In this document: in pieces, positions 3,577 through 45,658 of the stretch
Position numbering within the stretch: position 1 is the stretch's first letter
Layout of the letters: every line of letters begins with the position of its first letter
NCBI GenBank assembly: GCA_964610055.1
Contig: CAZSUC010000001.1
Coordinates: 157,304-214,866, forward strand
Length of the DNA stretch: 57,563 bases
Origin: an uncultured Candidatus Saccharibacteria bacterium
GTDB taxonomy: Bacteria > Patescibacteriota > Andersenbacteria > UBA10190
Direction: 5' to 3'
Notes under the pieces: generated by a model
Told to the model about the DNA's origin: nothing
The model's database searches: none
The model's input: the letters and a program-made list of their open reading frames with translations, nothing else
Position numbers and translations under genes: made by a program

Positions 3577-3600
3577 CCCTAACCAGATTTGTACACAATG

Positions 3601-3673: not shown

Positions 3674-3674
3674 T

Positions 3675-3761: not shown

Positions 3762-3782
3762 GCTGCCCCACAGAATACCCAA

Positions 3783-4364
3783 CTACTCCTTTTTTATCAA
3801 TTCCAATACTTTAGGGATCTTCTGAAAATCAGCCGCCAGTACTGTCCGCAAGCTCCCGTTATACAACGCTGCCGCCGGATGATAGACCGGAAAAATGACT
3901 CGTCCGTCTCGCCGCTTTGGCTGTCCATGTATCTTAGTAATCGAAAATCCCGGTCCCAGCATATATTCCATCGAAAATCTTCCCAAAGTTACCACTAATA
4001 AAGGATCAATTATTTCTATTTGCTCTGCCAGCCATGGCGCATAAGCCTCAATCTCCTCTGGCAATGGATCGCGATTTCCCGGGGGTCGATGTTTAATCAC
4101 GTTAGCGATAAATATCTCTTCGCGCTTGAATCCAGCTAACCCAATCAATTCATCCAAAAATTTGCCTGCCGCACCCACAAACGGCCGTCCCTGCTGGTCC
4201 TCATTTTTGCCGGGTGCTTCCCCAATAAACAACACCTCTGTGTTCGCGTTCCCTTCCCCCGGCACCGTATGCAAAGCCGTTGGTTTTAGTGGTAAATCTT
4301 TCGCTTCCCACTCCTCGTTCAGAATTCGCAATGCTTCTTCTTTTTCCTCGCGCGTTGGCTTCAT
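3783..4364 (-). CDS. Uracil-DNA glycosylase, family 4
   Basis: Motifs FIGEAPGKNEDQQGRPFVGAAGKFLD and HPAAALY are typical of family-4 UDG. Confidence 0.9.
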   Translation of the reverse strand: MKPTREEKEEALRILNEEWEAKDLPLKPTALHTVPGEGNANTEVLFIGEAPGKNEDQQGRPFVGAAGKFLDELIGLAGFKREEIFIANVIKHRPPGNRDPLPEEIEAYAPWLAEQIEIIDPLLVVTLGRFSMEYMLGPGFSITKIHGQPKRRDGRVIFPVYHPAAALYNGSLRTVLAADFQKIPKVLELIKKE

Positions 4365-27000: not shown

Positions 27001-30000
27001 TTCCGTCCCCAGTTGCATCGTTAAAGACTAAATAAGTGCCACTCGTGCCATTAAAGCACTCGCCTGTCGTGCAATCACCCACTGCTGCAATATCGCCTGC
27101 CATGCTTTCCCAAGTTAATGTCCCGCTTCCATCACTGGTTAGGACTTGCCCATCTGTGCCGTCATCCGTTGGCCACGTGTAAGTCCCTCCTCCAAACGTT
27201 GTTGTCCCGCCAACTGTTATATTCCCGCTCGCATCAATCACAAACGGCGTCGTATCCCCACTCTCATCATTCACCACCAACGAATTACCCGTCCCCGTAT
27301 TAGTAATTGAAAACACATTTGATCCTGTTACCGCTATATCTGTAGAAGCGTCTAAGGTTAAGGAATCAGCCAAATCGCTGAATCCTAACGAATCGGCCGC
27401 AATGTCTAATGTGACGGCTAATTCCTCTCCGCCCGTTCCGTTGGTAACTGTAATCTTTCCTGCTCCTGCATCTGCAATTGATCCTACATAGTCTCCTGTC
27501 GTGTCTGTACCCAAAGCCACTGTATTAGCGCCAATTGTTGTGACTCCAGCATTGCTAATTGTAATATCTCCACTCATCGCTACGCTTTCCCATGAATCTC
27601 CGTCCGCAATCAATACATTTGCATCAGTCGCTGTCGTTGTCCCTAACGTTGCTCCATTAATCTTGGCCACAGTTAGCGCCGTACTGCCGTCAGTATCTAA
27701 TGTACCGGTAGCATCGCCCGTAAATGTGTGTCCCGATAAAATCACCGTTCCGTCCGCATCTGGTAATGTCCAAGTACGATTACCCGACATGCTCGCCGAT
27801 ATAGCTAACTGTCCCGTGCCGCCATCGTCATAAAATGTTAGGTATGATCCGCCGTCTGAAGTCCCGTCAAAACAGTCTCCAGTGTCACAATTGCCAACTT
27901 TTGTCACATCTCCTGTACCGGCTCCAACACCTGTTACTGCTTGCCAGGTTAAATTCCCTGCTCCGTCCGTCACTAACACTTGTCCGCTTGATCCTCTTCC
28001 GTCCGGCCAAATATATCCGTATTGGTTAAAATACACTTTCCCGTTTGATCCCGAATCATCTTCAACTGCAAATAAGATATTCCCGCTCGGATCTTTAATT
28101 GATAGTTGAGAACCGTCCGCAATATTCAAATTTGGAGTCGTTCCTGAGAAATATAGCGTTGTCCCGTGAGTTACGTTGCCAGTTACATCAAAACAATCTC
28201 CGCTCGTACAATCTCCAACTGTATTAATGTCTCCGGCAATCCCCCCTCCTGTTATATTTGCCCAAGCCAAAGTGCCGTCTGTTTGAGCCGTTAACACGTA
28301 ATTATTACTTCCGATTGTCGTCGGCCAAGTGTAAGTTAAGCTGTTTAAGGTTGTGGTTTGACCAGTTGCAACCATTAAATCGCCGCCAACAGTCACGTCT
28401 CCAGCGCTATCAACCACAAATTCAGTTCCATTGGCATTTACTGTAAACGAATCCTCGCTGCCAGTATTCACCACGCTAATATCCGCTCCGGCTACTAACG
28501 ACGTGCCAGTTGTTGAATTGCCTACTGTCAGTGTATTGGTATCCGTTACTCCGATGGTTGTCGCCGCATCCAAAGCTAATGCGTCCTTTAACTCAGTGAA
28601 ATCAAGGCTATCAGCCGTAATATCAACCGTAATAGCTGCTCCCTCTGTTCCAGAATTATTCACTGTAATCCGGCTTGTACCGCTCACGGGTGTAATTGTT
28701 GCCACGTAATTACCTGTTGTATCAGTGCTCAGTGTTACCGAATTTGGCTGTATAGTCGTTAATCCAGCCTGCGTTAAGCTTATATCACCTGTTATTCCTC
28801 TCGTCTGCCAACTACTGCCATCACCAATCAAAATATTTCCCGCCGTTGCCGTAGCGCTGCCAATCGTAACATTCTTAATTTTATTCACTGTGACGTTGGA
28901 TAAGTACCCGGATACATCACCAGCCACACTTAAAGCGCCTTCCAAAGTACTTACTGTCGTTGAATTAACTGTTGTGACGTCATTTAAGGCACCTACGCTA
29001 ATACTTGTTAATCCGACCAGATCCGCATCCAAATTAAAGTGATTAGTGCCGTCTAGTGTAATATTTGTACCGCCATAATATGTTGGCGCTTCCGTTTCGC
29101 TTGAACATGCCCACACCGCATTTGTATCATCCCATCGTAATATCTGATCATCCGCGCATGTTCCTAACAGTTGTAATCCATTCGCTGTTAACGCCATTCC
29201 TGATGCTGTTTGCGTTTCTGTGTCGTTTACACCTGTTAATAATTGAATTGCTAAACTGCCTCCGCTCGTATCTAAGCCATTGCCTGTGTTGACTGCAATT
29301 GTCGGCGTGGCTCCTTCTCCGCTGCCGCCAGTTACCGTAATGCTGTCGTCTGCTGCGCTTAATGACGCCACGTAATTACCCGCCGTTTGCGTACCTAAAT
29401 CAATCGCATCGTTGGCAATTGTGATACTTGTTGAGCCTGTTGTTCCTAAAGTCGTGGTAGTTACTTCTCCGGTTAATTGTTGACCGCTCAAAATGATAGT
29501 TCCACTCGAATTAGGCAAAGTCCACGTTCGGTTAGACGACATTGATGATGAAATTTGAAGAGTACCCGTTCCGCCGTCATCATAAAACGTCAAAGCCGTG
29601 CCACCGTCCGAAGTCCCGTCAAAACAATCCCCGCCGGCACAATCTCCAACGCTACCCACGTCTCCAACTAATCCAGCTTCTGTTGCTGTCGACCAATTCA
29701 AAGTACCATCACCATTGCTAATTAATACTTGATTAGATGTTCCGTAAGTTGACGGCCATTCATACTCCACTGAATTTAAAGTCACGTGATTTGCTCCGCT
29801 TACATACTCTGCGCCAAATAAGATATGTCCGCTCGCGTCTTTAACATAAAAAGTAGAATTATCCGCTACTGTTAATGTTGTCCCTGATCCTGCTGCTGTG
29901 AAACAATCACCGGACGCGCAGTCTCCAACTGCTGAAATATCACCTAATCCCATTGAACCCGGATTACCCCATGTTAATCCACCTGCTCCATCAGTAGTTA

Positions 30001-33000
30001 AGAGATAATCTTCTCCTCCTGCATCGCCTGGCCAAGTGTATGTTTGGCCATTTAATGTTGTTGTGCTCCCAAAAGTTACACTTCCTGCCGCATCAATCAC
30101 AAACGGCGTCGTATCCCCACTCTCATCATTCACCACCAAAGAATTACCCGTCCCCGTATTAGTAATTGAAAACACATTTGATCCCGTTACCGCTATATCT
30201 GTAGAAGCGTCTAGGGTTAAAGCGTCTTTTAATTCACTAAAATCTAATCCGTCCGCCGTCACTGCCACTCCACTACTGCCCACAGTTAAGGTTGAATCAG
30301 CCGCTGTCACCGCTACCCCACTTGAAGTTACGCTAATACCATTACCGGCCTTAACCGATAATGTTGGCGTTGAGCCATGTGCTGGCGCGCTAATTGTATT
30401 TAAACCATTCCCGGCTGTAATACTAGCAACATAATTTCCACTCGTATCAACACTCAAAGATACCGATCCATCCGTAATGCTTGTTACTCCAGCAGACGAT
30501 AATTCCAAAACACCCGTTACTGGCACAGAGCTAAATCCAGTCCCGTCAGCTACCAAAATATTTCCGCTGTCGTTGCTGCTCATTTTAATCTGAGCCCCGA
30601 CTGTCACGTTCCCCGCTGCGTCAATTATAAAAGGTGTTGAATCACCTGATTCATCGTTCACTGTTAAGGAGCTTCCTGTTCCAGTATTAGTAATTGTTAG
30701 CGCGCTTCCTGATCCACTTTTTGCAATTGTCAGCGTATTGGCATCGGCGGCCGTTATTGTTGTTGGCGCGTCCAATGTTAATGCGTCCGCAATTTTAGAA
30801 AAATTCAAACTATCATCTGCTATCTGCAATGTCGTCCCAGATAGTTGTAATATCGATCCGTCCGGTGTACGCCATGCTGTCTGCTGAGTAGTGCCGTCCC
30901 AAGCCAATAATTGGGATGTCGAAGGGCTTGAAGGTACACCTGCTTCTAGAGAAAAAGTTACTGTATCAGTCGCTGATACAGCCGTCGCTAAACCAGTGCC
31001 TGCCACAAAAGTTAGTTCGTCATTACTGTCAATATCTTCACTCGTTGTTCCGTCTGTTATTGAAAAGCCTTGAAAGCCTGTCGCGTTACAGTCTTGCCAA
31101 GTAAATCCTCCAGTTGAGCTATTGTAAATTAAACAATAACCATTTGACGGAGAGTTAGAGGCTAATAGCATTGATTCTTCAATTGCATCTGCTTGAATTG
31201 TTAATGCTCCAGACGTACTAATAGTTGCATCTCCGCTTACTACGGCTGAATTCCATTGGCTTCCATTTCCAACTAATACCGCGCCACTACTAGCAGTTGT
31301 TGTACCTAACGTTGCGCCGTTTATTTTTGCTACACTAACTGACGTACTCCCGCTCGTTGATAAGGTGCCAGTTAAATCTCCAATTAAATTATGTCCTGAT
31401 AAAATAACTGTTCCGCTCGCATTTGGTAATACGATATTTCGATTTGCGTCTGCATCGGCTGAAGACAGATTAATTGTATAACTGCCTGCTGAAGGACCTT
31501 TAAAGTACAAACTATCCGAACCAGTTGCATCAACCGTAAAACAACTACCCGTATCGCATGTCCCAACATCGCGAATATCTCCCGTCACACCCGCTGCGCT
31601 TGGATTTATCCATGTTAATTGTCCTGAACCGTTAGTTGCTAATATGAAGTTATTGTCTCCGCTCGCTGCTGGCCAAGTATAGGTTAAATTATTTAATGTT
31701 GTTGTGCCTCCAACCGTTAAATCACCGTCTTCATCTATTTCAAATACCGATGTATTACTTGTTGGTGTCCCTTTCGCTATCCCGAACAAAGCCTGATTAG
31801 CGCTTGGTGTAGCCCCAACTAAAACTTCAAACATTGGAATATTAACATTTGAAGAAGATGTATTTTCTGTTTGAAAAACTAATCTGCTATTGCTATCTTT
31901 CCCGTATTCAATGCTCCAATCTGCATCGCTCCCTAAGTTTAAAGCCACATCATCAGCAATTGTCCATTCGCCTGTTATTGTTTCTGCGTCATCGTCAAAA
32001 ATAGCCGCTTCAATCGTATTTTCAGTGGTTGCATCTATTGTTGTGAGTCCATTTATAGCTGTAACGGAATTTAATTCGCTTGCAATCGAAAATTCAGTTC
32101 CGTCCAGTTCTAAGTCATCCCCGGCCGTATAGGCTGTATCGGTGCTACTAATAGTTAAAGTTCCGGTAGTCTTATTCAAAGATACCGTTGTAGCGCCTTC
32201 TGAGGCGACTGTCAGCACTTCATCGGCACTATTAGCAGTAAATGTATCTGTGCCAACTTTAATTGCTTGTAGGGCATTCTGAGGCGTTATATCTTGCCCC
32301 ATTGCTGTGTTGCTAATGGTTAATCCATTAATCTCAATTCCTTCACCTGCTTGAAATTGGATATCTCCAGTTTGTCCTTGTACGGAATTTACGACATTAG
32401 ACGCAAAAATTCGTCCATTACCCAGATTTATATCAATTCCTTCACCAGTAACATTGCCTTGTAACGTTAACTCGCCCTCCACTTGCATTTGATCATTGAT
32501 TAACGTTGGAACGTTAACTTCAAAAAATCTATCCAGTTCTTCTGTTGTTAAAGCCAAAACTCTAGGATTTTTATTATTCTCATCGCCATATGCCAAACGA
32601 GTTTCTTCTGTTGGAATCATCTCTTCCTCTAATCCAAACCACTCATTCAAATAAGATAATTTATTGCTAAATGAAGCACCGGATAGCTTCATTAAATGCA
32701 ATGAAGTCGTTACTAATATTCCAATCGCAAATAAAGACAGTACTGCTGGAGCTAATCGTAAGCGATGATGGGCAGTCGTTGCTGGTATTTGCCGATGATA
32801 TTTCTGATTTACTTCATTCTCATTAAAAGGTGAATAATATGTCTTAGTTTGATACTTACTTTGAGCAACCGTCTCATTAGCTAAAATAGGATCATTATTA
32901 CTGGTCTGTTTCTGCCAAGTTGCTAGATACGTCGGTGAGAACACTACTAAATCATCTTCAACTTTCGATAAAGATTTAATTTTTTGGTTAGACTCCTGCA

Positions 33001-33433
33001 ATGCTGTTTCTATAGGCAAAATTTCCTTTGAAATATTTTCCTCTTTGAGCGGTATTGCCTGTTCTGTTGTCTTCTCTGGATTTAAAAATGCCTCTAAAAC
33101 TGTCTGCGTATAAAGTCTTTCTCCATTATCATCTCTTAACGGAGATATTTTTCCTTGCGTTTCATATCTACGCAAAGTACTAGTTGAGATATTTAACTGT
33201 TTTGCCGCCTCAGAAATAGTAAGAGGGCGGTTATTTTTGTACCTTTCTAATTCAATTACGGAAAATAATCTGTGTCCGCCATCTGATCGTTGAGCTGTAA
33301 TTATCCCCTTTTTCTCCCATCTTCTTACAGTATCCACAGATACACCTAAAATTTCGGCAGCGCGCCGAATTGAGACAAAATCGCCCTTTAATGGTGTTTC
33401 TTGGGGCATGAAGGAAGGATTAATCCTAGGCAT
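24074..33433 (-). CDS. Giant (3119 aa) protein: two N-terminal MerR/excisionase-type HTH domains, one TM helix, ~2870-aa repetitive ectodomain
   Basis: aa ~19-66: VSIRRAAEILGVSVDTVRRWEKKGIITAQRSDGGHRLF. aa ~71-116: LTISEAAKQLNISTSTLRRYETQGKISPLRDDNGERLYT. TM LAPAVLSLFAIGILVTTSLHLM at aa ~226-247. Then come repeated modules (..TYTWP....G..L.....G.L.W, VG[DT]C..G.CF, TLP..[SD]GT[IV]). The ORF is uninterrupted over 9.4 kb. Confidence 0.9.
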   Translation of the reverse strand: MPRINPSFMPQETPLKGDFVSIRRAAEILGVSVDTVRRWEKKGIITAQRSDGGHRLFSVIELERYKNNRPLTISEAAKQLNISTSTLRRYETQGKISPLRDDNGERLYTQTVLEAFLNPEKTTEQAIPLKEENISKEILPIETALQESNQKIKSLSKVEDDLVVFSPTYLATWQKQTSNNDPILANETVAQSKYQTKTYYSPFNENEVNQKYHRQIPATTAHHRLRLAPAVLSLFAIGILVTTSLHLMKLSGASFSNKLSYLNEWFGLEEEMIPTEETRLAYGDENNKNPRVLALTTEELDRFFEVNVPTLINDQMQVEGELTLQGNVTGEGIDINLGNGRIFASNVVNSVQGQTGDIQFQAGEGIEINGLTISNTAMGQDITPQNALQAIKVGTDTFTANSADEVLTVASEGATTVSLNKTTGTLTISSTDTAYTAGDDLELDGTEFSIASELNSVTAINGLTTIDATTENTIEAAIFDDDAETITGEWTIADDVALNLGSDADWSIEYGKDSNSRLVFQTENTSSSNVNIPMFEVLVGATPSANQALFGIAKGTPTSNTSVFEIDEDGDLTVGGTTTLNNLTYTWPAASGDNNFILATNGSGQLTWINPSAAGVTGDIRDVGTCDTGSCFTVDATGSDSLYFKGPSAGSYTINLSSADADANRNIVLPNASGTVILSGHNLIGDLTGTLSTSGSTSVSVAKINGATLGTTTASSGAVLVGNGSQWNSAVVSGDATISTSGALTIQADAIEESMLLASNSPSNGYCLIYNSSTGGFTWQDCNATGFQGFSITDGTTSEDIDSNDELTFVAGTGLATAVSATDTVTFSLEAGVPSSPSTSQLLAWDGTTQQTAWRTPDGSILQLSGTTLQIADDSLNFSKIADALTLDAPTTITAADANTLTIAKSGSGSALTITNTGTGSSLTVNDESGDSTPFIIDAAGNVTVGAQIKMSSNDSGNILVADGTGFSSVPVTGVLELSSAGVTSITDGSVSLSVDTSGNYVASITAGNGLNTISAPAHGSTPTLSVKAGNGISVTSSGVAVTAADSTLTVGSSGVAVTADGLDFSELKDALTLDASTDIAVTGSNVFSITNTGTGNSLVVNDESGDTTPFVIDAAGSVTFGSTTTLNGQTYTWPGDAGGEDYLLTTDGAGGLTWGNPGSMGLGDISAVGDCASGDCFTAAGSGTTLTVADNSTFYVKDASGHILFGAEYVSGANHVTLNSVEYEWPSTYGTSNQVLISNGDGTLNWSTATEAGLVGDVGSVGDCAGGDCFDGTSDGGTALTFYDDGGTGTLQISSSMSSNRTWTLPNSSGTIILSGQQLTGEVTTTTLGTTGSTSITIANDAIDLGTQTAGNYVASLSAADDSITVTGGSGEGATPTIAVNTGNGLDTSGGSLAIQLLTGVNDTETQTASGMALTANGLQLLGTCADDQILRWDDTNAVWACSSETEAPTYYGGTNITLDGTNHFNLDADLVGLTSISVGALNDVTTVNSTTVSTLEGALSVAGDVSGYLSNVTVNKIKNVTIGSATATAGNILIGDGSSWQTRGITGDISLTQAGLTTIQPNSVTLSTDTTGNYVATITPVSGTSRITVNNSGTEGAAITVDITADSLDFTELKDALALDAATTIGVTDTNTLTVGNSTTGTSLVAGADISVVNTGSEDSFTVNANGTEFVVDSAGDVTVGGDLMVATGQTTTLNSLTYTWPTTIGSNNYVLTAQTDGTLAWANITGGGIAGDINTVGDCTSGDCFDVTGNVTHGTTLYFSGTTPNLNIADGSQLSIKDPSGNILFAVEDDSGSNGKVYFNQYGYIWPDGRGSSGQVLVTDGAGNLTWQAVTGVGAGTGDVTKVGNCDTGDCFDGTSDGGSYLTFYDDGGTGQLAISASMSGNRTWTLPDADGTVILSGHTFTGDATGTLDTDGSTALTVAKINGATLGTTTATDANVLIADGDSWESVAMSGDITISNAGVTTIGANTVALGTDTTGDYVGSIADAGAGKITVTNGTGGEELAVTLDIAADSLGFSDLADSLTLDASTDIAVTGSNVFSITNTGTGNSLVVNDESGDTTPFVIDASGNITVGGTTTFGGGTYTWPTDDGTDGQVLTSDGSGTLTWESMAGDIAAVGDCTTGECFNGTSGTYLVFNDATGDGTLQIADLTAVAGRTWTLPDADGTIIVSGHTFTGDVTATLGANNTTALTIAADVVDGTELADAITLDSATLVFDDGTNTLLTLTDDGTTGSLSMTGGLTVEGTTTFNSLTYTWPSGPIGGNDYVLTTQTDGTLAWTDISNLASADIETVGTCESGACFTAADTSDYSLYFEGATADDYEIILVAADATLSDKTITLPNLSGTVALLGASGQTGDFTTSGLATLGSLVVDTSTLAVNASGYENKVGVGTATPEDLFEIQGAEGTDAVLVLDADDGDDTADTWFIKSLASTNGLSFVNGTTTVASLSSGGALTLNQVAVGSGNTGSSAASNLNSIFGTNNTDNVNNSGQRNSIVGYNNSFSGSTNSSRNSIFGSDNTISGAVQHTYNGVFGASNTLTATTGAFIFGRGITNAVDNSLMIGPSDAAKMTILSSGSLGIGDTSPDAKLEILSTTEQLRLTYTDDSVDSRFTVDSSGNLTIDNTGTKTTIADDLAISGDDLYMATNTAGYILVADGTNYNPVAMSGDVSLDGTGAVTIADEAVDESDLDISGSAVDGYCLKWSDTSGKMEWTDCSSAFSSFIISDDETVPTTQTIDDGETITFADTSTIDLAVAATNTVSASVMADSLDFSHLEDTLNLDNSTSMVLGAYDYDINLDSTGEFAIQDGGSDVVKVDADGKTTFYDDVDWSLGAGEDLSIAAIEAPTSDMVTITNASYGATSSADGLQINYTAASDSASGDTNMGINLAMTSSGDSGDTLYGVNIAGLAAGSDATEYALVIGANWDRGLYIQSASEFTEAVTYSGNARPTRQETLSPEYEGASLSGDGSSNSGTMTSDFCDNDATNGIPAVNTSYCGTSDTHSYYSWTTTESTSQDYDIWIRWRVPDNFDSWAASNPVQVYGRRTDATNGSVQVSFYDTNNAADAGITAAEAAGTASTWTQLSDTPTGTYTAGEYVTIQVHMTADQSDSVQVGEINLNYLSNN
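27230..27361 (-). repeat. Copy A of a 132-nt near-identical (129/132) dispersed intragenic repeat
   Basis: Aligns to 30089-30220 at a fixed offset of 2859 nt, with mismatches only at 27281, 27326 and 27355. Encodes LTLDASTDIAVTGSNVFSITNTGTGNSLVVNDESGDTTPFVIDA. Confidence 0.85.
30089..30220 (-). repeat. Copy B of the 132-nt near-identical intragenic repeat
   Basis: See copy A. The surrounding repeat units are much more diverged at the DNA level. Confidence 0.85.
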
Positions 33434-34010
33434 TGGTTGCTTAAAAATATAAGCAAACCTATGTCATGCATAATTATATCATATCTAAATCCCTAAATTA
33501 ATAACTCAATCATAACAACTAATCCTGGTATTTAATCCAACTTTTGTTGGTAATAAATATTAATTTTTAAGTAGTTATATTTGTTTATATCTCTCATTCT
33601 TCGCGGTTTTAATAGGCAATTAACATTGTCCGCACTTTAATTTAATTATCGCTTAATCTCTTCTTGGTTATTCTTGTTCCTCCTTAAGACAGATAAAAAA
33701 ACAGTCATGGTTACATAAGCTGGTATAGCTATAATTTAATCGTCATCAGCTTGATCTCTGTAATGTATAATTATGTTTCTATTTGATTTCGCCCAAGCCT
33801 GTTTTTTACTAACGACTAGACCGAACCAAAACTAGGCATTAGTTATCACTCTTTCTAAAATATATGCAAATGCATACCAAATAAGCTATGCATAAATTGT
33901 CAGATGCCAAAATATCTTGCGGACACAAAAATTACTCACTGGTTTTACTGCTAATAAATAATATTATTGGCGCATTATCTTTTATATCCAGGAAAGATTA
34001 TAATATACAC

Positions 34011-34811
34011 ATGAAATCCTTCGTGCGGATCTTTGGTGTTTATTTCACTCTCGCAGTTGTTTTAGGGCTTGCACCGTGGTTGGTAAAAGCTCAAGTTTTA
34101 CGCGGGTTACCCGGTTTAGCTGAATACGTTAACCTTGAAGAAAGTGACGTTCAAAACGGCTATTTAGTCGCTCTAAATGAGGGCAAGTATCAACTCGCTT
34201 CCGAAGAATACTCTCCCTATCTTTATGGCGTTGTTGCGCTTAATCCTGCTGTCGCTGTTAGTCAAATCGGTCATCAAAATGCTTATCCGGTCGTTACGTC
34301 TGGGTCATCAGAAGTCATAGTTTCAGCTGCTAACGGCACTATTGCTCCTGGTGATTACATTACTAGCTCTACTACGCCTGGCGTTGGAATGAAAGCCAGT
34401 GAAGCCGGATTCGTTATTGGGATCGCCCAAGCTGAATATACTAACACTAATGAGCCAGGACTAATTACAGTTGTTATTGATTCAAAGTTTATTAGTTCAT
34501 TAAGCAATGAACAGCTCTCAGCTCGAGCCTTTGCTGCTCAATTTCAAAATGCCTTCTCTATTGGTATGCGCGCCGCTGCTAGCGAACCTAATACCGCTTT
34601 ACGATATGGGGCCGCCGCTTTAGTTCTTATTATTTCAATTACAGTTGGTTTTCTAGTTTTTGGCCGAGCTGCTACTAACGGCATTGTTGCCGTCGGCCGC
34701 AATCCTCTGGCGCGCAAATCAATCTTCTTAGCCATTGCTTTTAATATTGGTATTACTGTTGTTTTTGCTGCTGTTGGTCTCATACTGGCTCTCATTATTC
34801 TCGCGCTGTAA
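34011..34811 (+). CDS. Signal-peptide protein with an extracytoplasmic beta-rich domain and a C-terminal two-helix hairpin resembling an F-ATPase c subunit (RNP loop, no acidic residue)
   Basis: The start was chosen at MKSFVRIFGVYFTLAVVLGLAPWLVKAQ (signal-peptide-like); the track ORF begins at 33888. The C-terminus is ..AALVLIISITVGFLVFGRAATNGIVAVGRNPLARKSIFLAIAFNIGITVVFAAVGLILALIILAL. It is the first gene of the atp cluster, 9 nt upstream of the next gene. Confidence 0.6.
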   Translation: MKSFVRIFGVYFTLAVVLGLAPWLVKAQVLRGLPGLAEYVNLEESDVQNGYLVALNEGKYQLASEEYSPYLYGVVALNPAVAVSQIGHQNAYPVVTSGSSEVIVSAANGTIAPGDYITSSTTPGVGMKASEAGFVIGIAQAEYTNTNEPGLITVVIDSKFISSLSNEQLSARAFAAQFQNAFSIGMRAAASEPNTALRYGAAALVLIISITVGFLVFGRAATNGIVAVGRNPLARKSIFLAIAFNIGITVVFAAVGLILALIILAL

Positions 34812-34820
34812 AATATCTTT

Positions 34821-35561
34821 ATGAATCGTATGTCTGATACATCCAGTTCCGCTCAAGAAGCTGCTGATAAGTTATCGCGCAATCTTGCTGGTATGGAACA
34901 AGATATTCGCACTGCTTTTGAATCAGCTTTGGGCCGTGTTTTAGATGATTTACAAACCAGCACTAATGCACGTGTTGACCGAGCTCTTTCTCGCTATGAG
35001 CAAGAGCTATCTTCTACCGTTGCTGCTGCTAAAGCAAAAATATTAGGCCAGGCTGAATCTTTTTCAACAGATGCACAGTCTCGTATTGTGTCTATTGAAC
35101 GAACTGCCTCTGATCGTATTGAGGAAGCAACTGCTGGTTTTGAAAAAACACTTCAACGAATTCAGACGTTACTCTCAACCTATTCTCAACAATTAGACGA
35201 GCATGCTCAAAAACAAGTTGAAATCGTCTTAAAAGACTTCCAATCTCACCTTTTGGACACTTTAAAGCAAGTCGATGCCCATACTGACACTGAAATCACT
35301 ACTTTTATTGAAGCCGCTAAAGAACAAACTATTAATCTCGAAAAAACTGCTCATGAACAATTTGCTCAAGAAGCTCAAAAATACGCCTCCTCACTTCTTA
35401 CTGCCAAAAACGACATTCTAGCTAAATACGAAAATCATTTACAACAAGCCTTACCTCAAACAATTTCTGATTCCTTACGTAAAACGCTTACTCCGCAACA
35501 ACAACAAGAACTTGTTATGGATGCTCTTAATCAATTAAAACAGGATTCATGGGCGCAGTAG
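34821..35561 (+). CDS. Soluble all-helical coiled-coil protein in the operon position of ATPase subunit b (no TM helix)
   Basis: 246 aa, rich in A/Q/E/K/L/T with heptad-like character throughout and no hydrophobic segment. Overlaps the delta gene by 13 nt. Confidence 0.65.
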   Translation: MNRMSDTSSSAQEAADKLSRNLAGMEQDIRTAFESALGRVLDDLQTSTNARVDRALSRYEQELSSTVAAAKAKILGQAESFSTDAQSRIVSIERTASDRIEEATAGFEKTLQRIQTLLSTYSQQLDEHAQKQVEIVLKDFQSHLLDTLKQVDAHTDTEITTFIEAAKEQTINLEKTAHEQFAQEAQKYASSLLTAKNDILAKYENHLQQALPQTISDSLRKTLTPQQQQELVMDALNQLKQDSWAQ

Positions 35562-36019
35562 CTGACCAAATCCTCCCCTTTCGGGTTATTCTGGCTGCTG
35601 ATGCCACTTTTTTTTCCGTTCGCTTAGATCAAGCCTATAACGCTCTCTTCTCTTTAAAAAAAGATTGGCGCCCGGTAATTGCTGATTTATTCTCTGTTAG
35701 TGAATATCAGCATATTTTTCGTAATTTAAATATTACTGATAAAACTTCTCCTTCCGAAGTCGTAGACGTTATTCAAAACATGCAGTCGGCCCTAGCAGCT
35801 TTGCCGGTCATTGATCTAAAACTCGCTTTTTTGCCCTCTCGATCATTCTCTGAGCAATTAGTAGATTGGTTTGATCAGTATGGTCCTGGGCCCGGACGTT
35901 TAAATTTAATTTTTGATCCTACCCTAATTGGCGGTCTGTCAGTTGGTTATCTTGGACGCTTATACGACTATTCCCTATCCAAACATCTTTCTTATGATGG
36001 ATTATCAACAATATCGTAA
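35549..36019 (+). CDS. atpH: F-type ATPase subunit delta (OSCP-like), short and divergent
   Basis: The C-terminal signature ..LIFDPTLIGGLSVGYLGRLYDYSLSKHL matches the V.DP.LIGG..V..G....D.S....L motif of delta/OSCP. The gene sits directly before alpha. Confidence 0.7.
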   Translation: MGAVADQILPFRVILAADATFFSVRLDQAYNALFSLKKDWRPVIADLFSVSEYQHIFRNLNITDKTSPSEVVDVIQNMQSALAALPVIDLKLAFLPSRSFSEQLVDWFDQYGPGPGRLNLIFDPTLIGGLSVGYLGRLYDYSLSKHLSYDGLSTIS

Positions 36020-37472
36020 AGAATCAAGCGAATACGGAGTTTTAGCAGAGCTTAAGCATCCGCTCGCTTTTGTTCGCGGATTACCAGAGGTCGCGGTTGG
36101 AGAAGTCGTGGTGTTTGAAAATGGTATTACTGGGCAGGTAACCGCTTTGCAAGCTGAATTTGTGGAAGTGCTGGTGTTGTCCAGCGGTCGTCTCGTGCCC
36201 GGAACAGAAGTCGTTCGCACTAATACTCAGCTTTCTGTTAAAGTTGGCCAATATCTTCAGGGTGCAGCCATTAATCCCCTCGGACAATCCTTATTTCCTG
36301 ATAATCCTGTTGTGGTATCCGACGATGCCACTGACCGTGTAACTGATATCAATCCTCCTCATATTAGCCATCGTACCGCTATTAAAACACCATTTTTAAC
36401 CGGTACTAGTGTTACCGACCTACTTTTACCTCTCGGACGTGGTCAACGTCAAGCCGTTCTTGGTGATCCTACAACTGGAAAAAATTCATTCTTATTAACT
36501 ACAGTTAAAGCTCACGCCACTCACGGCAAGGTTGTTTACGCTATGATTGGCAAGCCGTGGAATGATATTCGCAAAGTATATAATTTCATTGCCGAATCGC
36601 CTAATAAAGACAACATCACGTTAGTTGCAACAAGCGCGGAAGATATTATTAGCCTTATTTGCCAAACTCCGTTTACTGCTATGACTATTGCGGAATATTG
36701 GCGCGATCAAGGCGAAGATGTTGTCATTATTTTCGACGATTTATCCACGCACGCGCGTTTTTATCGAGAAGTTGGCTTATTAGCACGTCATTTCCCGGCT
36801 CGTGAGTCTTACCCTGGTGATATTTTCCATTTGCATGCTCGTCTTCTGGAGCGCGGCGGTAATTTTATTCATCCTGACAAAGGCGAATCCTCCATTACTT
36901 GCTTGCCTGTTGGCGAGACTGTGCGCGGAGAATTAACTGGTTACATTGTTTCTAACTTAATTGGTATTACAGACGGCCATCTTCTGTTTGATGAAACTAT
37001 TTTTAGCCAAGGACGTCGCCCTGCTATCGATGTTTCTTTATCTGTTACTCGTGTTGGTGGACACACTCAAAGTCCTTTAATTCGTGCTTTGCACCGCAAA
37101 TTAGTGGTTTTAATGAATAAACATGAAGAAGCTCAAGGATACACCCATTTTGGAGCTGAATTACCGGAAGCCATGCAACGCATTCTTGATGCTGGTGATT
37201 GTTTGTTAGAGTTCCTTTCACAACCGCTCTTCTTTACTGTTCCCTACTCTGTGCAAGTGGTTTTCTCTGCCATGATTTGGATGGGCTGGATGAATCAGCA
37301 TAAAACTGAAATCCCCGCTTGGCGAAATAACCTATCTGCTGCCTATAATCAAGATGGAAATAAACAAATACTAGATGCTCTGCTAGAGCCTAAATCATTA
37401 GATGAATTTGTCCAAAAACTTGCCGCGAGTCGCGAGCACCTTCTGGGGCTATGCCAGGCGTCCAAGACATAA
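35994..37472 (+). CDS. atpA: F-type ATPase subunit alpha (Walker A variant GDPTTGKN)
   Basis: LLPLGRGQRQAVLGDPTTGKNS, IFDDLSTHARFYREV.LL..R.P.RE.YPGDIFHLHARLLER, ITDGHL.F, SLSVTRVGG. The start was placed at the MM codons 35994/35997; the track ORF starts at 35928, inside atpH. Confidence 0.9.
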   Translation: MMDYQQYRKESSEYGVLAELKHPLAFVRGLPEVAVGEVVVFENGITGQVTALQAEFVEVLVLSSGRLVPGTEVVRTNTQLSVKVGQYLQGAAINPLGQSLFPDNPVVVSDDATDRVTDINPPHISHRTAIKTPFLTGTSVTDLLLPLGRGQRQAVLGDPTTGKNSFLLTTVKAHATHGKVVYAMIGKPWNDIRKVYNFIAESPNKDNITLVATSAEDIISLICQTPFTAMTIAEYWRDQGEDVVIIFDDLSTHARFYREVGLLARHFPARESYPGDIFHLHARLLERGGNFIHPDKGESSITCLPVGETVRGELTGYIVSNLIGITDGHLLFDETIFSQGRRPAIDVSLSVTRVGGHTQSPLIRALHRKLVVLMNKHEEAQGYTHFGAELPEAMQRILDAGDCLLEFLSQPLFFTVPYSVQVVFSAMIWMGWMNQHKTEIPAWRNNLSAAYNQDGNKQILDALLEPKSLDEFVQKLAASREHLLGLCQASKT

Positions 37473-38317
37473 GCAATGAGATTGTTTTTGTTAAGAACCT
37501 TCAGCGGCTAGTTTCGGCCTATGAAGAAATTGCTGTTATGCGCATCGAAAAAGTGCGTCAAAATGTTATTGCCGCCCGTTTTTTTCGCGAAGGTTTGTCT
37601 AACGTTTTTTCTGAAATTCAACTCTCCCACCAACGTGACATAGCTGTTCAGCTAGAAAAAAAGAAAAAACATCTTATCCCTCGGCAAGCCGTCGTACTTA
37701 TATCCACTAACACTCGTTTAGCTGGTTCTATCACCGCTCGAGTTACTCAAAGTTTTATTAAATATGTGAATAGTAATGATGCCGATGCCGTCGTTTTAGG
37801 GCAAATTGGTAAAGAATATTTAGCTCAAGCTGGATTTAAGCGCGAAATTGCCTTTTTCCCTCTCTTAAAAGATCAGCCTGATATGGCCGATCTCAAGCCT
37901 TTAGTTGATCATATCCTCAAGTATCAAGCTGTTACTGTGTTCTTTGGTCACTTTGAAAATCTCGTGACTCAAAAACCAGCGCAAGTAGAGTTAGGTAGCC
38001 GTCAAATATTAGACGAACTTTCTAAAATTACTTCCAAATCACCTAAAAACATTGATACTTACCTTTTTGAGCCGTCTTTAGACGAAATTATTCGGTTTTT
38101 TAATGATCAGATCTTCGGCACGCTGGTCAAAATGACCATGAGCGAGTCGTGGTTGTCTTTGCTTGGGTCTCGTATTACTGCTATGGAGCAAGCCTCTGGT
38201 AATGTTGTTAAGCGTATTCATGTTCTTGAACAGGAACATCGTCAAGCTGCTCGTCGTTTGCAAAATACTAAGCAGCGCGACCGTCTCAGTGGCATTACTT
38301 TATGGCATAATACATAG
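37451..38317 (+). CDS. atpG: F-type ATPase subunit gamma
   Basis: The N-terminal ..I..V.N.Q.....E.IA..R..K helix and the C-terminal RITAMEQASGN..K....L....RQAARRLQNTKQ pattern resemble gamma. 288 aa, between alpha and beta. Confidence 0.85.
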   Translation: MPGVQDISNEIVFVKNLQRLVSAYEEIAVMRIEKVRQNVIAARFFREGLSNVFSEIQLSHQRDIAVQLEKKKKHLIPRQAVVLISTNTRLAGSITARVTQSFIKYVNSNDADAVVLGQIGKEYLAQAGFKREIAFFPLLKDQPDMADLKPLVDHILKYQAVTVFFGHFENLVTQKPAQVELGSRQILDELSKITSKSPKNIDTYLFEPSLDEIIRFFNDQIFGTLVKMTMSESWLSLLGSRITAMEQASGNVVKRIHVLEQEHRQAARRLQNTKQRDRLSGITLWHNT

Positions 38318-38318
38318 T

Positions 38319-39770
38319 ATGGAAATCACCGGATACATCACTTCTGTTCAGGGGCAGGTTGCTCGAGTTAAATTTGAAAATCGGCGTCCTACTCGTCATG
38401 ACATTCTCATTACTCAAAATGACCACCCATCTCTTTTAGAGGTCATTGCTTCTGACACTCCGGAAACATTCTATTGTTTTATCTTAAATCCCGAACATAA
38501 TCTAGCCCGTGGCGTCGTTGTTAAAAGCCAAGGAGAGTCTCTCATGATTCCTGTTGGGCCAGGTGTTTTAGGTCGCGCCTTTGATATTTTTGGCTCCCCG
38601 CACGATGAATTAGGCGAAATTAAAAGCGATCAGCATCGTCCCCTCTTCGCCCCTCGACAACAAAATTTGAATAATATTCAAACTCCCGAAGAAGTCGTTG
38701 AGACCGGTATCAAAGCCTTAGATTTTTTTACGCCAATATTTCGTGGTGGCAAAACTGCTTTTGTCGGCGGCGCTGGTGTGGGTAAAACCGTTATTCTAAC
38801 CGCTATCATCAATCGTCTCGTTGTAGAAGCAAAATCAGATCAGAAAACTGTCGCGGTTTATAGTGCTGTTGGTGAGCGTTCCCGTGAGGCTCAAGAATTA
38901 CATTCTGATCTAAAAGAGGCCAATGCTTTGCCATATACCAGCCTTATCCTGGGTCAAATGGGCGAAAATCCTGCTTTGCGTTTTCGTACCGCTTATGCTG
39001 GTGCGACCATTGCTGAGTATTTTCGGGATGACATGTCCACCAATGTTCTCTTTTTCATGGATAATGTTTATCGCTTTGCTCAAGCTGGCCATGAATTAGC
39101 CACTATTATGGGACAAATCCCATCCGAAGATGGTTATCAACCAACTTTGTCCTCGGAAATGGCTGAGCTTAATGAGCGTCTCGTTTCTACAAAAAATGCT
39201 AGTATCACCTCCTTTTTAGCCGTTTTCGTTCCGTCCGATGATCTAACTGATTATGGAGTACGCTCTGTCTTCCCTTATATCGATAGTATTATTATCTTGT
39301 CTCGTGAAATTTTTCAGTCCGGTCGCTTACCTGCTATTGACCTTTTACGATCTACCTCTGCCGCGCTTAATCCTCTGACCATTGGCGAAAAACACTACTC
39401 AACCTATATTCGCGCTAAACAGATTATGGAAAAAGCCACTGATTTAAAGCGTATAGTATCGTTGGTCGGTGAAAGCGAACTTTCTCAGGAAAACCAGTTA
39501 GTTTATCGGCGTTCTCAGTTGATTACAAACTTTATGACACAAGATTTGTTCGTTGGCTCAACTATTTCTGAATCAGTCCGAGAGTTTATTGGACGTGAAG
39601 AAACCGTCGATGCTATCAGTGATATTATTGACGGTAAATATGACGAATTACAGCCCGATCAGTTACTTTATATCGGTAGTATCAAGAACTTAGGTAAACA
39701 AAATAAAGATCTCAAAGAAAAAGCTATTCAGCAACAAGCTGACCAAGAATCAGTCCGCACTTCTTCGTAA
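38319..39770 (+). CDS. atpD: F-type ATPase subunit beta (catalytic; intact Walker A/B)
   Basis: GGKTAFVGGAGVGKTV, VGERSREAQEL, LFFMDNVYRFAQAGHE, GYQPTL, VPSDDLTDY, GRLPAIDLL.STS. The DELSEED region is degenerate (GESELSQENQ). The start MEITGYITSVQG is at 38319, one nt after the atpG stop. Confidence 0.95.
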   Translation: MEITGYITSVQGQVARVKFENRRPTRHDILITQNDHPSLLEVIASDTPETFYCFILNPEHNLARGVVVKSQGESLMIPVGPGVLGRAFDIFGSPHDELGEIKSDQHRPLFAPRQQNLNNIQTPEEVVETGIKALDFFTPIFRGGKTAFVGGAGVGKTVILTAIINRLVVEAKSDQKTVAVYSAVGERSREAQELHSDLKEANALPYTSLILGQMGENPALRFRTAYAGATIAEYFRDDMSTNVLFFMDNVYRFAQAGHELATIMGQIPSEDGYQPTLSSEMAELNERLVSTKNASITSFLAVFVPSDDLTDYGVRSVFPYIDSIIILSREIFQSGRLPAIDLLRSTSAALNPLTIGEKHYSTYIRAKQIMEKATDLKRIVSLVGESELSQENQLVYRRSQLITNFMTQDLFVGSTISESVREFIGREETVDAISDIIDGKYDELQPDQLLYIGSIKNLGKQNKDLKEKAIQQQADQESVRTSS

Positions 39771-40031
39771 TTAAGTAACTAGGCCGACAAAAACATTGAC
39801 CTTATTGTTCCGGCACATCAAGACGCCACGATCAAGTTTAACTTCTTTAACGTGTCGCTTATCTGGTCGGATCATCAAATTATCCTTGATGAGAGAAATA
39901 AAATTAGCGTGTTCCGGTAATATATCGAACTTGCCCGCGTCGTTAACCGCACTCAAAGCTACCGCTCTCCCCTCAAACAATACACCTTCCGGAGCTACTA
40001 CCGACACATCCATTTGGGGATAATCGGCCAT
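39771..40031 (-). CDS. atpC: F-type ATPase subunit epsilon, N-terminal beta-sandwich domain only (86 aa)
   Basis: MDVSVVAPEGVLFEGRAVALSAVNDAGKFDILPEHANFISLIK...I......KEVKLDRGVLMCRNNKVNVFV aligns by eye along the whole E. coli epsilon N-terminal domain (LDVVSAE..MFSG.V..I.V.G.EGELGI.PGHAPLLTAIKPG.I.I...........L.GG.LEVQP..VTVLA). Confidence 0.8.
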   Translation of the reverse strand: MADYPQMDVSVVAPEGVLFEGRAVALSAVNDAGKFDILPEHANFISLIKDNLMIRPDKRHVKEVKLDRGVLMCRNNKVNVFVGLVT

Positions 40032-40048
40032 TCAAGATTATTATTCAA

Positions 40049-40639
40049 TTACGGAGCCACTGGTACCGTATCTTCAGAACCAGGTACTGGAGTTTCGTCT
40101 AACATCATTGGTGGTACTTCTTCCCCACCCATATCTTGTGGTACTACTGGCGTTGGAGTCACTTCAGCATCGCTAGTCGTAATTCTAACTGGCACAACAT
40201 CAAGAATCATATCGCGGTCAGAATCATATAAAATTGCTCTCTTTTCCGTGATAATCAAATGATCACCGTTTTTTGCCGGCTTATAAAATTCATTTGAAGC
40301 CTTTAATTTTTCTACATCCGTAATCGTTGCCACTGTCGGAGCTGGGTCAGTTGGAATATCCAAATGACGTCGTACTTTTGCCAAAATCTCTTCTGCCAAA
40401 GCCGATCCAGCTTGCTCCGAATTCTGTTTAGCAGCCTGTAACTCATTCGCAGTTTGCTCTAATTGCTGTTGCACTGTTCGGCGATCTTTTTCTGCCTTAA
40501 CGAACATAACGACAACTGCAATAATTGCAATTAAAAGCACGATATTTAGAAAACGTGCCATTCCGCCTCCGCGTTTGCGCGGCATACGAGTTTCTTTTGG
40601 TGTAATAGTAGATGGTTTTTCATTCATACTCACCATCAT
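40049..40639 (-). CDS. Hypothetical membrane-anchored protein (N-in single TM, coiled coil, C-terminal P/T/V-rich tail)
   Basis: RKRGGGMARFLNIVLLIAIIAVVVMFV anchor. No recognisable catalytic motif. Packed between tig and atpC. Confidence 0.6.
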   Translation of the reverse strand: MMVSMNEKPSTITPKETRMPRKRGGGMARFLNIVLLIAIIAVVVMFVKAEKDRRTVQQQLEQTANELQAAKQNSEQAGSALAEEILAKVRRHLDIPTDPAPTVATITDVEKLKASNEFYKPAKNGDHLIITEKRAILYDSDRDMILDVVPVRITTSDAEVTPTPVVPQDMGGEEVPPMMLDETPVPGSEDTVPVAP

Positions 40640-41956: not shown

Positions 41957-43954
41957 TTACAGCAATGGCGCAATAATCAAAGCCACGATACTCATTAACT
42001 TAATCAAGATATTTAACGCTGGGCCCGCTGTATCCTTAAATGGATCACCAACTGTATCGCCAATTACGGCTGCTTTATGCACATCTGATCCTTTTCCACC
42101 TAAATTACCGGCTTCCACATATTTCTTTGCGTTATCCCAAGAACCTCCGGCGTTGGCCATCATAACCGCTAATAAGAATCCCGTTACAATACCGCCAGCT
42201 AATAATCCACCTAACGCTTCCGCTCCTAAGGTAAATCCAACTACTACTGGCACTAAAATCGCCAAAATACCAGGTAATACCATTTCATGTAACGCTGCTG
42301 TGGTAGCAATATCCACACTTTTCCCATAATCAGGCTTGTTTTGTCTCTCCATAATCCCCGGGATTTCTCTAAATTGACGTCGTACTTCTTCTACCATTTT
42401 CATAGCTGATTTTCCGACCGCTTCCATCGCAAAAGCCGAAAAGATAAATGGCAAAGTGCCACCTAAGAATAATCCCACCATAATTTTAGGCTGCATGACG
42501 TCAATCATCGAAATATGAGCCATTTCCTTGAAGCTCACCAATAACGCTAATGACGTTAATGCTGCTGATCCAATCGCAAAACCTTTACCAATTGCAGCCG
42601 TTGTATTTCCCACTGCGTCTAACGATTCCGCTCTTTGACGAGTTTCACTTCCCATACCAGCCATTTCAGCAATTCCCGCCGCATTATCAGCCACAGGGCC
42701 ATATGTATCTGAAGCCAATGTAATTCCTAAAGTTGATAACATTCCCACTGCTGCAATCGCAATTCCATACATGCCATCCAGCCAAAATGACAGCAAAATT
42801 GCCGCCACTACCACTAATATCGGTACTGCTGTCGACATCATTCCTAACGCCAACCCACTAATAATATTTGTTGCTGGGCCAGTTTGAGCTGCTTCTGCTA
42901 CTTTTCGAGTCGGGGTTTTTTCGTGACTCGTGTAATATTCCGTCACTAATCCAATTGCCACCCCCGCCACTAATCCCGTCACTACTGCCCAAAACTTCGA
43001 CCAATCATTTGCAAATAGGTGATTAGTCCACCACCAGCTACCTAAAATCATCACTACTCCCGCTAAAATAGTTCCTTTATTGAAACTACTGCTAATTTTA
43101 TGCTCGTCATTCGTTCTGACAACCGAAATACCAACTAAACTTGCAACTACCCCAATTGCTGCTAAACCAAGCGGATAAATCGCTCCTGCATCCGCAAATG
43201 TTTTCAAAGCTACCGATGAAATACCAAGTACCATTGCGGCGATCAAAGTATCCACATAACTTTCAAACAAATCTGCTCCCATACCAGCCACATCGCCTAC
43301 GTTATCACCAACATTATCGGCAATTACAGCTGGATTACGAGGATCATCTTCTGGAATTCCTTTTTCTACCTTACCCACTAAATCGGCACCTACATCCGCT
43401 GCTTTGGTGTAAATTCCACCACCGACTCGTGCAAATAAAGCTACTGCCGATGCTCCAAAACCAAATCCATACACTAAACTTGGGTTTCCCGTCCAAATCC
43501 AAAGCAAAGTTACGCCTAATAATCCTAGACCTACTACTGACATTCCCATAACCGCTCCTGAGCTAAAAGCAACTGATAATCCTTGTGCTACACCCTTTTT
43601 CGCTGCTTCCGCCGTACGAACGTTCGCTAATGTCGCAATTCTCATACCAATATTTCCGGCCACCACTGATAACACTGCTCCAATTAAGAACGAAATAATC
43701 GTTTCGTTGGCCACTGTCTGCTCTGGCGTGCCCCAGAAACGAGTTAACCATAACAATGCCGCTGCTACCGCGACCACAATCACTAACACCCGATATTCTC
43801 GGTTTAAGAAGGCCATCGCGCCTTCTCTGATTGCATTTGCAATGCCCTTAGCCTCTTGGTTTTCTACCTTGCGGCTTGTTATTGACTTAGCTTGCCAGGC
43901 GGCATAGCCCAAAGCTAATACCCCCGCGGCTAGAATCCATGTTTCGTACTGCAT
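41957..43954 (-). CDS. hppA: Membrane-integral pyrophosphatase (K+-dependent-type signature)
   Basis: [56 protein letters not shown]; about 16 hydrophobic helices; 665 aa. Confidence 0.95.
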
Positions 43955-45307: not shown

Positions 45308-45658
45308 TTAAATTGCGTCCTGAATATGCTCCCATAACCACTGCCCTTCTCTTTTACTTGCCCCTATAACGTCAATTCGCACCTCTCCCCAATATCCTTT
45401 CGCCTGCTGATAAGCATAAACTGCTCGTTTCAACTTATTCTGTTTCGCCTGATTTACGCTGTCCAAAGCATCTCCGTACCTGCTATTGCTCCTTATTCTC
45501 ACTTCCACAAAAACCAATGTCCCTCCGTCTCGCATAATTAAATCAATTTCCCCTAAACGACATCGCCAATTGCACGCCACATATTGGTATCCTTTCCGCT
45601 CCAAATATTGCCGCGCTAAATCCTCGCCCGCTTGACCTATATCCTGGGTCTTGCCCAT
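45308..45658 (-). CDS. yraN: YraN-family (UPF0102) endonuclease-like protein
   Basis: GEDLARQYLERKGYQYVACNWRCRLGEIDLIMRDGGTLVFVEVRIR is the typical YraN core; 116 aa. Confidence 0.85.
   Translation of the reverse strand: MGKTQDIGQAGEDLARQYLERKGYQYVACNWRCRLGEIDLIMRDGGTLVFVEVRIRSNSRYGDALDSVNQAKQNKLKRAVYAYQQAKGYWGEVRIDVIGASKREGQWLWEHIQDAI

Follow-up and report, generated by a model that had tools for sequence, protein, structure and literature searches.

An F-type ATPase operon of Patescibacteria without subunit a and with a c-subunit hairpin that carries a surface domain and lacks the ion-binding carboxylate

What does an F1-type ATPase drive when no gene for subunit a stands beside it? This question is raised by positions 34011-40031 of a 57,563-nucleotide stretch of DNA from an uncultured bacterium deposited as Candidatus Saccharibacteria (assembly GCA_964610055.1, contig CAZSUC010000001.1). 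This whole stretch, in the following called the window, represents 57.5 kb of a contig of 698,565 bp. A preliminary description of the locus reported F1-type genes with no subunit a in cis, in which subunits c and b were replaced by two unknown proteins and epsilon was displaced to the other strand. The analysis presented here leads to a different reading of these genes. The locus probably encodes a complete and self-contained Patescibacteria-specific derivative of the F-type ATPase, which has lost ion translocation and serves as an ATP-driven mechanical actuator at the cell surface.

According to the open reading frame (ORF) calls, six co-directional and tightly coupled ORFs are followed by an ORF of 86 amino acids (aa) on the opposite strand, and all seven are intact. 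The junctions between genes 1 and 2, genes 2 and 3, gene 3 and alpha, alpha and gamma, and gamma and beta are +9, -13, -26, -22, and +1 nucleotides (nt), respectively. Gene order, junctions, and the convergent epsilon gene are exactly as first described. The individual features are the following:

34011-34811, plus strand: gene 1, here named c', 266 aa (ORF call, AlphaFold2, NCBIfam, Foldseek)
34011-34091, plus strand: Sec-type signal peptide of c', aa 1-27
34116-34493, plus strand: beta-barrel ectodomain of c', aa ~36-161
aa 171-191 of c', plus strand: linker helix
34587-34805, plus strand: c-subunit hairpin of c', aa 193-265
34695-34706, plus strand: loop G229-R230-N231-P232 of c'
34821-35561, plus strand: gene 2, here named b', 246 aa, all-helical (hhalign to canonical b)
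35549-36019, plus strand: gene 3, delta (OSCP-like), 156 aa (Pfam, hhalign)
35994-37472, plus strand: alpha-like subunit, 492 aa, Walker A motif GDPTTGKN (Pfam ATP-synt_ab, 1.7e-55)
37451-38317, plus strand: gamma-like subunit, 288 aa (Pfam ATP-synt, 2.5e-30)
38319-39770, plus strand: beta-like catalytic subunit, 483 aa, with GGAGVGKT, GERSRE, and the Walker B Asp (Pfam ATP-synt_ab, 1.3e-63)
39771-40031, minus strand: epsilon, 86 aa, N-terminal beta-sandwich only (Pfam ATP-synt_DE_N, 1.8e-12)

With these assignments, the operon reads as atpE'-F'-H-A-G-D(-C), which would be the canonical order with only atpB lacking. The same c-to-epsilon order is found in canonical F1Fo operons, including that of Southlakia epibionticum (atpI-a-c-b-delta-alpha-gamma-beta-epsilon, PMC10633639) and the canonical operon of a Wildermuthbacteria locus (L037). 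Contrary to the first impression, the layout is therefore not foreign to atp operons, since only a is missing from the canonical c-b-delta-alpha-gamma-beta-epsilon order.

The C-terminal hairpin of c' is a genuine c-subunit homologue, so that the claim of an unknown protein in place of c does not hold. Residues 179-264 match the NCBIfam model NF005521 (F0F1 ATP synthase subunit C) at E=1.5e-5 over model positions 14-98 of 101, with a score of 25 against a cut-off of 122. The best sequence match of the hairpin in the PDB is the c2 subunit of Acetobacterium woodii (4bem, E=0.044). The AlphaFold2 model of c' has a predicted local distance difference test score (pLDDT) of 88, and Foldseek superposes the hairpin on F-type c subunits in dozens of cases, at TM-scores of 0.8-0.88 and root-mean-square deviations (rmsd) of 1.2-1.7 Å. 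The hairpin can be aligned without gaps with canonical c subunits, including the 78-aa subunit of L037, and a hidden Markov model (HMM) of gene 1 also recognises canonical c subunits of 93-95 aa in three further loci from unrelated bacteria (L026, L027, and L033).

The c' family is defined here by a signal peptide, a barrel, and a c hairpin without carboxylate in a protein of 250-340 aa, with an invariant GRNP loop and a position directly upstream of b'-delta-alpha-gamma-beta. In canonical enzymes, the cytoplasmic GRNP loop is the contact site for gamma and epsilon. This loop is present in 49 of 49 c' family members, and the c subunit of L037 contains it as well (AIGRNPEA). The ion-binding site, in contrast, is lost. 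At the position of the carboxylate, none of the 49 c' sequences has Asp or Glu, which are replaced by V, L, I, F, A, G, or T (Val in the window), whereas all six canonical c subunits compared have E or D in this column. F- and N-type ATPases with c subunits lacking Glu/Asp have been reported in 20 cases (PMC11738941). An Asn at position +13 after the GRNP loop in helix 2 was considered as an alternative ion site and rejected, as it is found in only 31 of the 49 sequences, the others having V, S, L, T, or further residues. Helix 1 of c' also differs from that of canonical c subunits in lacking the Gly-rich GxGxG packing motif, with a Gly fraction of 0.11 compared to 0.23.

While the ion site is missing, c' has gained two N-terminal parts that canonical c subunits do not have, a signal peptide and a beta-barrel outside the cell that spans about 130 aa. 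The fold of this ectodomain is that of the C-terminal barrel of phage pre-neck appendages and tail fibres (BFVD matches with E values of 6e-12 to 1e-9 and rmsd of 2-2.7 Å over ~130 residues). Matches in the PDB are gp12 of phage phi29 (3suc), the base of gp8.5, and capsid decoration proteins, and there is a weak match to Pfam PF11962. Neither c' nor b' has a match in PHROGs. Both termini of canonical c subunits are located outside the cell. A signal peptide followed by an N-terminal domain would thus fit topologically with an extracellular crown on a c-type ring, and a location of the barrel outside the cell is consistent with c-subunit topology.

Barrels of this type also occur apart from the hairpin. 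A protein of 1543 aa from Woesebacteria (P0264, MBN1168904.1) matches the c' ectodomain three times (profile positions 32-176) and has no hairpin, which indicates that the barrel is a mobile extracellular module in Patescibacteria.

The second element of the ion path, subunit a, is missing as well. Within the window, the Pfam models ATP-synt_A and ATP-synt_C have no match in the 27 larger ORFs, and the six-frame translation of the whole sequence gives no match to an HMM made from 120 a subunits of Patescibacteria. With the same HMM, a subunit a was found in none of 20 loci of the c' type (358.6 kb), compared to eight of eight canonical control loci, some of which are from distant phyla. PF00119 is absent from the called genes of six c'-type loci (L001, L003, and L090-L093), and the c'-type loci have no multi-transmembrane a-like gene and no subunit a within 10 kb. 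Hence, the reported lack of subunit a in cis applies to the window and to about 20 related loci. The initial suggestion that this F1 has a membrane partner other than a normal Fo is supported.

Split atp operons exist, and canonical a subunits are abundant in other Patescibacteria. In a search of a protein database, the a subunit of L037 gave 7,799 matches, the best 120 of which are all Wildermuthbacteria-like. As about 640 kb of the contig are outside the searched window, the operon could belong to an ordinary split ATP synthase with a, and perhaps a normal c, encoded elsewhere. Ions would then still be moved, and c' would be an unusual c subunit or a minority partner in a hybrid ring of the kind found in A. 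woodii, whose c2, the best PDB match of the hairpin, is such a hybrid-ring subunit. This explanation is very unlikely. Absence of the carboxylate in all 49 sequences means that a ring consisting only of c' would have no known ion site. In addition, the F1, delta, and b' proteins of the operon are only about 40% identical to canonical ones, which argues against a sharing of parts with a canonical enzyme, and subunit a is missing beside c'-type loci across deep lineages while being adjacent in every control. Since a ring without the carboxylate could not use subunit a in the known way, the presence of a canonical atpBEF elsewhere in the genome would also matter less.

In contrast to the ion path, the peripheral stalk appears to be retained. 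The b' protein, at first taken for an unknown soluble coiled coil, lacks a transmembrane (TM) helix in the window and in its closest relative (L001, Andersenbacteria), but 11 of 13 positional orthologues follow the plan of b subunits with an N-terminal TM helix and subsequent long helices. An alignment of these 13 orthologues with 18 canonical b subunits by hhalign yields a probability of 93% and E=3.3e-7 for the C-terminal 57 columns, which represent the delta-proximal end. Thus, b' is best regarded as a divergent homologue of b, the TM helix of which would have been lost in the window lineage. With 200-275 aa, b' proteins are longer than canonical b subunits, and they evolve very fast, with 21% identity between the window and L001. 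A homologue search with b' returned only the query itself, and a single-sequence AlphaFold2 model of low confidence (pLDDT 59) is all-helical (helices 7-151 and 156-214). Gene 3 has a weak match to Pfam OSCP (E=0.021), and its orthologue in L009 exceeds the cut-off of this model (26.3 vs. 22.3). At the family level, hhalign relates it to canonical delta with a probability of 96.9% and E=1.7e-10 over 113 columns, and gene 3 can be assigned to delta on the basis of these similarities.

A further membrane protein is encoded next to epsilon:

40049-40639, minus strand: 196-aa membrane protein with one TM helix (aa 24-52), a coiled coil, and, at the C-terminus, a domain with a predicted location outside the cell

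This protein was considered as the missing membrane-anchored b and rejected. It has no similarity to the TM-bearing b' proteins, it adjoins epsilon only in the window and in L001, and its positive-inside N-terminus indicates an N-in/C-out orientation, which is opposite to the topology of b. Its membership in the complex is doubtful.

The best models for all subunits are those of the canonical F1Fo enzyme, and every curated NCBIfam equivalog cut-off is missed. The best match of alpha is the canonical alpha model with 372 bits against a cut-off of 554, beta reaches 404 of 463 bits with TIGR01039, gamma 84 of 194 bits with TIGR01146, and epsilon 42 against 67. Despite this divergence, the Lys and Thr of Walker A, the GER..RE motif, and the Walker B Asp of beta are invariant in all 18 c'-linked sequences. 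The F1 part, with homologous alpha, gamma, beta, and epsilon subunits and catalytic motifs as intact as in canonical enzymes, is therefore predicted to be catalytically competent.

The position of epsilon on the opposite strand had been considered a special arrangement. Its inversion is a lineage-specific rearrangement, which is found in six of 16 loci in which the strand can be read (window, L001, L011, L012, L013, and L091), while epsilon is on the same strand in the other ten (L003, L006, L009, L017, L018, L020, L021, L022, L024, and L092). The shortness of epsilon is not peculiar either, as the epsilon subunit of the canonical operon in L037 has 81 aa. In the window, tig and the 196-aa gene are located upstream of epsilon on the minus strand. 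No nucleotide separates the stop codons of beta and epsilon (39768-39773), so that the convergent transcripts must overlap or end inside the neighbouring gene. There is no terminator-like hairpin at this junction, and the nearest consensus match is inside beta (minus strand, 39742-39728).

Genes 1 and 2 are conserved partners of atpH-A-G-D in related organisms, as established by the neighbourhood survey that the preliminary description had proposed. About 18 further Patescibacterial loci begin with c'-b', of which 14 run through beta and the others end at a contig edge, and c' is directly upstream of b' in 18 of the 18 loci that show this position. The order c'-b'-delta-alpha-gamma-beta is present in two metagenome-assembled genomes (MAGs) of Andersenbacteria, a 129-kb JGI contig, a WWE3 MAG, and a single-cell genome. 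Further carriers are numerous MAGs labelled Saccharibacteria or "Patescibacteria group" and four more metagenome contigs; some of the MAG labels ("Saccharibacteria", and in one case "Gammaproteobacteria") are given as deposited and may be loose. A profile search with c' among representatives of 50%-identity clusters retrieved 1,467 matches at E<=1e-30 and 10,862 at E<=1e-10, nearly all of which are 250-290 aa long and match from end to end. The c' protein of the window itself can be aligned end to end with 32 family members. In the records, these proteins are called "hypothetical protein" apart from two JGI records with the name "subunit c".

One of the loci deviates from this organisation. 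In L023 (Microgenomates), b'-delta-alpha-gamma-beta are of the c' type, and the gene upstream of b' encodes an unrelated protein of 241 aa (133-858) instead of c'. Alpha of L023 is split into two ORFs (2062-3529), and the locus may be a variant or a decaying copy.

Patescibacteria lose many pathways, and 30% of the genomes sampled from the candidate phyla radiation (CPR) lack the canonical complex. In the cultivated Southlakia epibionticum, the canonical ATP synthase is dispensable (PMC10633639). In such reduced genomes, the operon might be the remnant of a decaying ATP synthase with no current function, and the ORF calls of L020 also have a split alpha gene as in L023. A remnant is, however, extremely improbable. 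The seven ORFs of the window are intact and tightly coupled, the catalytic residues are invariant, and pairwise dN/dS values are 0.05-0.25 for all operon genes including c' and b' (where dS is estimable). The full-length architecture of c' is maintained in more than 1,400 clusters, and its signal peptide and ectodomain represent a gain and not just a loss.

Among the 72 betas of a distance tree, the 18 that are linked to c' stand apart from every canonical beta and also from the presumed N-type betas, which were assigned from gene order only. Identity between the beta of the operon and canonical betas is about 40%, compared to about 60% among the canonical ones. Canonical betas of Patescibacteria (L037 and L045) nest with those of other bacteria, with about 60% identity compared to about 42% to the c' type. 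The operon of L037 is canonical, with atpI, a, a 78-aa c with Glu (AFAEAI), b, and delta, and the gene table of S. epibionticum contains exactly one canonical atp set (PMC10633639). As canonical operons occur in other Patescibacteria, the c' operon is a second type and not the product of fast evolution of the only one. Within the phylum, it forms a second F-type lineage that is deeply divergent. Apart from its canonical subunits, L037 contains a gene for a protein of 224 aa with one TM helix (3491-4165), which is inserted between alpha and gamma.

For the mechanical actuator proposed here, the following reaction sequence can be suggested. The alpha3beta3 head would hydrolyse ATP, and gamma-epsilon would pass the torque to a ring of c' hairpins by way of their GRNP loops. 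Ions would not be moved. Neither subunit a nor the c carboxylate is present, which suggests that the work would be mechanical. The output would be rotation or torsional strain of the c' ring and its extracellular barrel crown relative to the b'-delta stator, and the crown might act on the cell wall, on a fibre or pilus at the surface, or on the surface of a host. This logic may be comparable to that of the F1-like ATPases of mycoplasmas that drive gliding or MIB-MIP antibody cleavage.

The mycoplasma ATPases are the closest functional precedents. Among them, the Type 3 "F1-like X0" ATPase (MSC_0618-0624 / MMCAP2_0575-0581) is required for MIB-MIP antibody cleavage and not for energy conversion (PMC3369863, PMC12994834). 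It has F1-like alpha, beta, gamma, and epsilon subunits without subunit a or a normal c, and one of its membrane components, Protein 5 (MMCAP2_0577), shares the general plan of c': a signal peptide comes first, followed by a large part that is not in the membrane and, at the C-terminus, two TM helices. Protein 5, however, has a mass of 87 kDa and no reported homology to c. Type 3 also lacks delta and the b stalk, its alpha has no delta-binding N-terminus, and it includes a 12-TM protein and a small cytoplasmic protein. It is confined to mycoplasmas and linked to MIB-MIP genes, whereas ORF and Pfam scans of the window reveal neither a 12-TM gene nor MIB/MIP genes. Beta of the window scores 362 with the MSC_0618 model (cut-off 570) and alpha 198 with the MSC_0619 model (cut-off 520). 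The Type 2 ATPase of Mycoplasma mobile, the G1-ATPase gliding motor (MMOB1660/1670; PMC8406192, PMC11864180), resembles the proposed system in its output, since an F1-derived ATPase has been co-opted for mechanical output at the cell surface. Type 2 consists of dimeric chains inside the cell and has no c-like membrane ring, delta, or b, and the window proteins remain below its models (NF045863, 302 vs. 600; NF045858, 326 vs. 850).

N-type ATPases likewise have a divergent F-type operon of their own, which can be present in addition to the canonical one. They keep subunit a and an ion-binding c and lack delta, and their order atpD-C-Q-R-B-E-F-A-G includes atpQ and atpR, in contrast to the c-b-delta-alpha-gamma-beta order with delta in the window. 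The presumed N-type betas, identified by gene order only, are closer to canonical betas than the c'-linked betas are, and N-type models score low with the window proteins (TIGR03305, 377 vs. 752; TIGR03324, 293 vs. 750).

The F1 alpha and beta subunits are also homologous to the export ATPases FliI and SctN, and alpha and beta of the window match FliI/SctN models at 1e-40 to 1e-56. This homology opens the alternative of a non-rotary machine, in which an F1-like hexamer energises export or assembly via or beside a c' ring or pore, similar to FliI-FliJ, with the crown as an outer vestibule. Translocation has been put forward for the F1-like clusters of mycoplasmas (Beven et al. 2012), and without the GxGxG motif in helix 1 the geometry of the c' ring may differ from the canonical one. 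Such a function is nevertheless unlikely. FliI/SctN systems have a single gene for a homo-hexameric ATPase and a FliJ-like stalk, whereas the operon has distinct alpha and beta genes and gamma. The FliI/SctN scores of 140-190 bits are far below the cut-offs of 380-700 and below the F-type scores. Furthermore, no export-gate or substrate genes are conserved nearby, and purifying selection on the full rotary set of gamma, epsilon, delta, and b would be hard to explain without a rotor and a stator.

Several points weigh against the proposed surface actuator. Ring formation by c' and its binding to gamma and epsilon are inferred from sequence, and other parts of the genome may contain a canonical operon or encode a non-homologous partner that serves as stator or channel. 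Without subunit a, no evident component holds the stator against the ring, and the TM-less b' of the window lineage leaves the stator without evident membrane attachment. The phage-like barrel may be merely an assembly or oligomerisation domain. Conserved neighbours reflect synteny at the level of lineages only, and none of them points to a substrate or target.

Few molecular machines are understood as well as rotary ATPases. To our knowledge, departures from the ion turbine formed by a and c are few and comprise the mycoplasma Types 2 and 3. The c' family is a large and deep-branching group that keeps the rotor-stator set, drops both elements of the ion path, and adds an extracellular domain to the rotor subunit. 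No published description of this architecture was found in the full-text literature searched, and the system apparently is an undescribed variant of the F-type ATPase family that is widespread in Patescibacteria. More tentatively, it could constitute a new class of prokaryotic rotary machine, in which a surface-exposed rotor ring bears a phage-like barrel crown and ATP spins or torques an extracellular structure in wall-bearing, ultra-small episymbionts.

The operon bears on the re-use of F-type motors for mechanical work and on the reading of surveys that score ATP synthase by alpha, beta, and gamma. Incomplete ATP synthase sets have been scored as loss or as the result of incomplete genomes (PMC10656485, PMC11738941), and it has been called puzzling that Patescibacteria without respiratory chains encode "ATP synthases" (PMC11665869). 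If the proposed function is correct, part of the "F-type ATP synthases" counted in Patescibacteria would not be energy-converting enzymes, which would help to explain why such genes are retained by organisms without a respiratory chain.

Upstream of the operon, the following region separates gene 1 from a divergent giant surface-protein gene:

33434-34010, no strand: intergenic, AT-rich, presumed promoter region

These 577 nt have a GC content of 0.36. The ORF calls contain no conserved ORF in this region, in agreement with its original description as non-coding, and there is no Rfam match. In scans for promoters and terminators, no enrichment over shuffled sequences was obtained, and the number of promoter-consensus sites was no higher than in shuffled sequence. 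In L001, a comparable gap measures ~770 nt. An in-frame ATG at 33888, which would extend gene 1 by 41 aa, was rejected as start codon because the sequences of homologues start with the signal peptide.

Outside the operon, the window has the ordinary chromosomal context of a Patescibacteria-like organism, with genes for two surface proteins that exceed 3,000 aa, RNase Y, ClpP, trigger factor, NusA, GyrA, and tRNAs. Close to the operon, a membrane H+-pyrophosphatase (41957-43954, minus strand, Pfam 6e-271) and a P-type cation ATPase (45637-48309, minus strand) are encoded. Either of them could energise the membrane without an F1Fo pump.

The giant surface proteins are repeat-rich and have 3,100-4,700 aa. 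In the window, they are encoded at 24074-33433 and 8518-18057 (both minus strand), and counterparts exist in L001 (1-3657), L090 (1-4155), and L093 (5374-6315). The product of 24074-33433 begins with MPRINPSF...SIRRAAEILGVSVDTVRRWEKKG, which reads as a helix-turn-helix (HTH) by eye, and precomputed Pfam annotation marks MerR/HTH_17 in its counterparts of L001 and L090. Fusion of an HTH to a huge extracellular protein is an odd combination. Giant genes with a MerR head adjoin the ATPase operon in several unrelated loci, and this linkage may be coincidental.

Near the start of the window, a tRNA gene at ~570-850 (plus strand), which was missed by ARAGORN in the raw window sequence, has a group I intron in its anticodon loop (Rfam RF00028 at 592-808, 66.3 bits vs. 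a gathering score of 50). After joining of the flanks at approximate splice sites, ARAGORN identifies the gene as tRNA-Phe(GAA).

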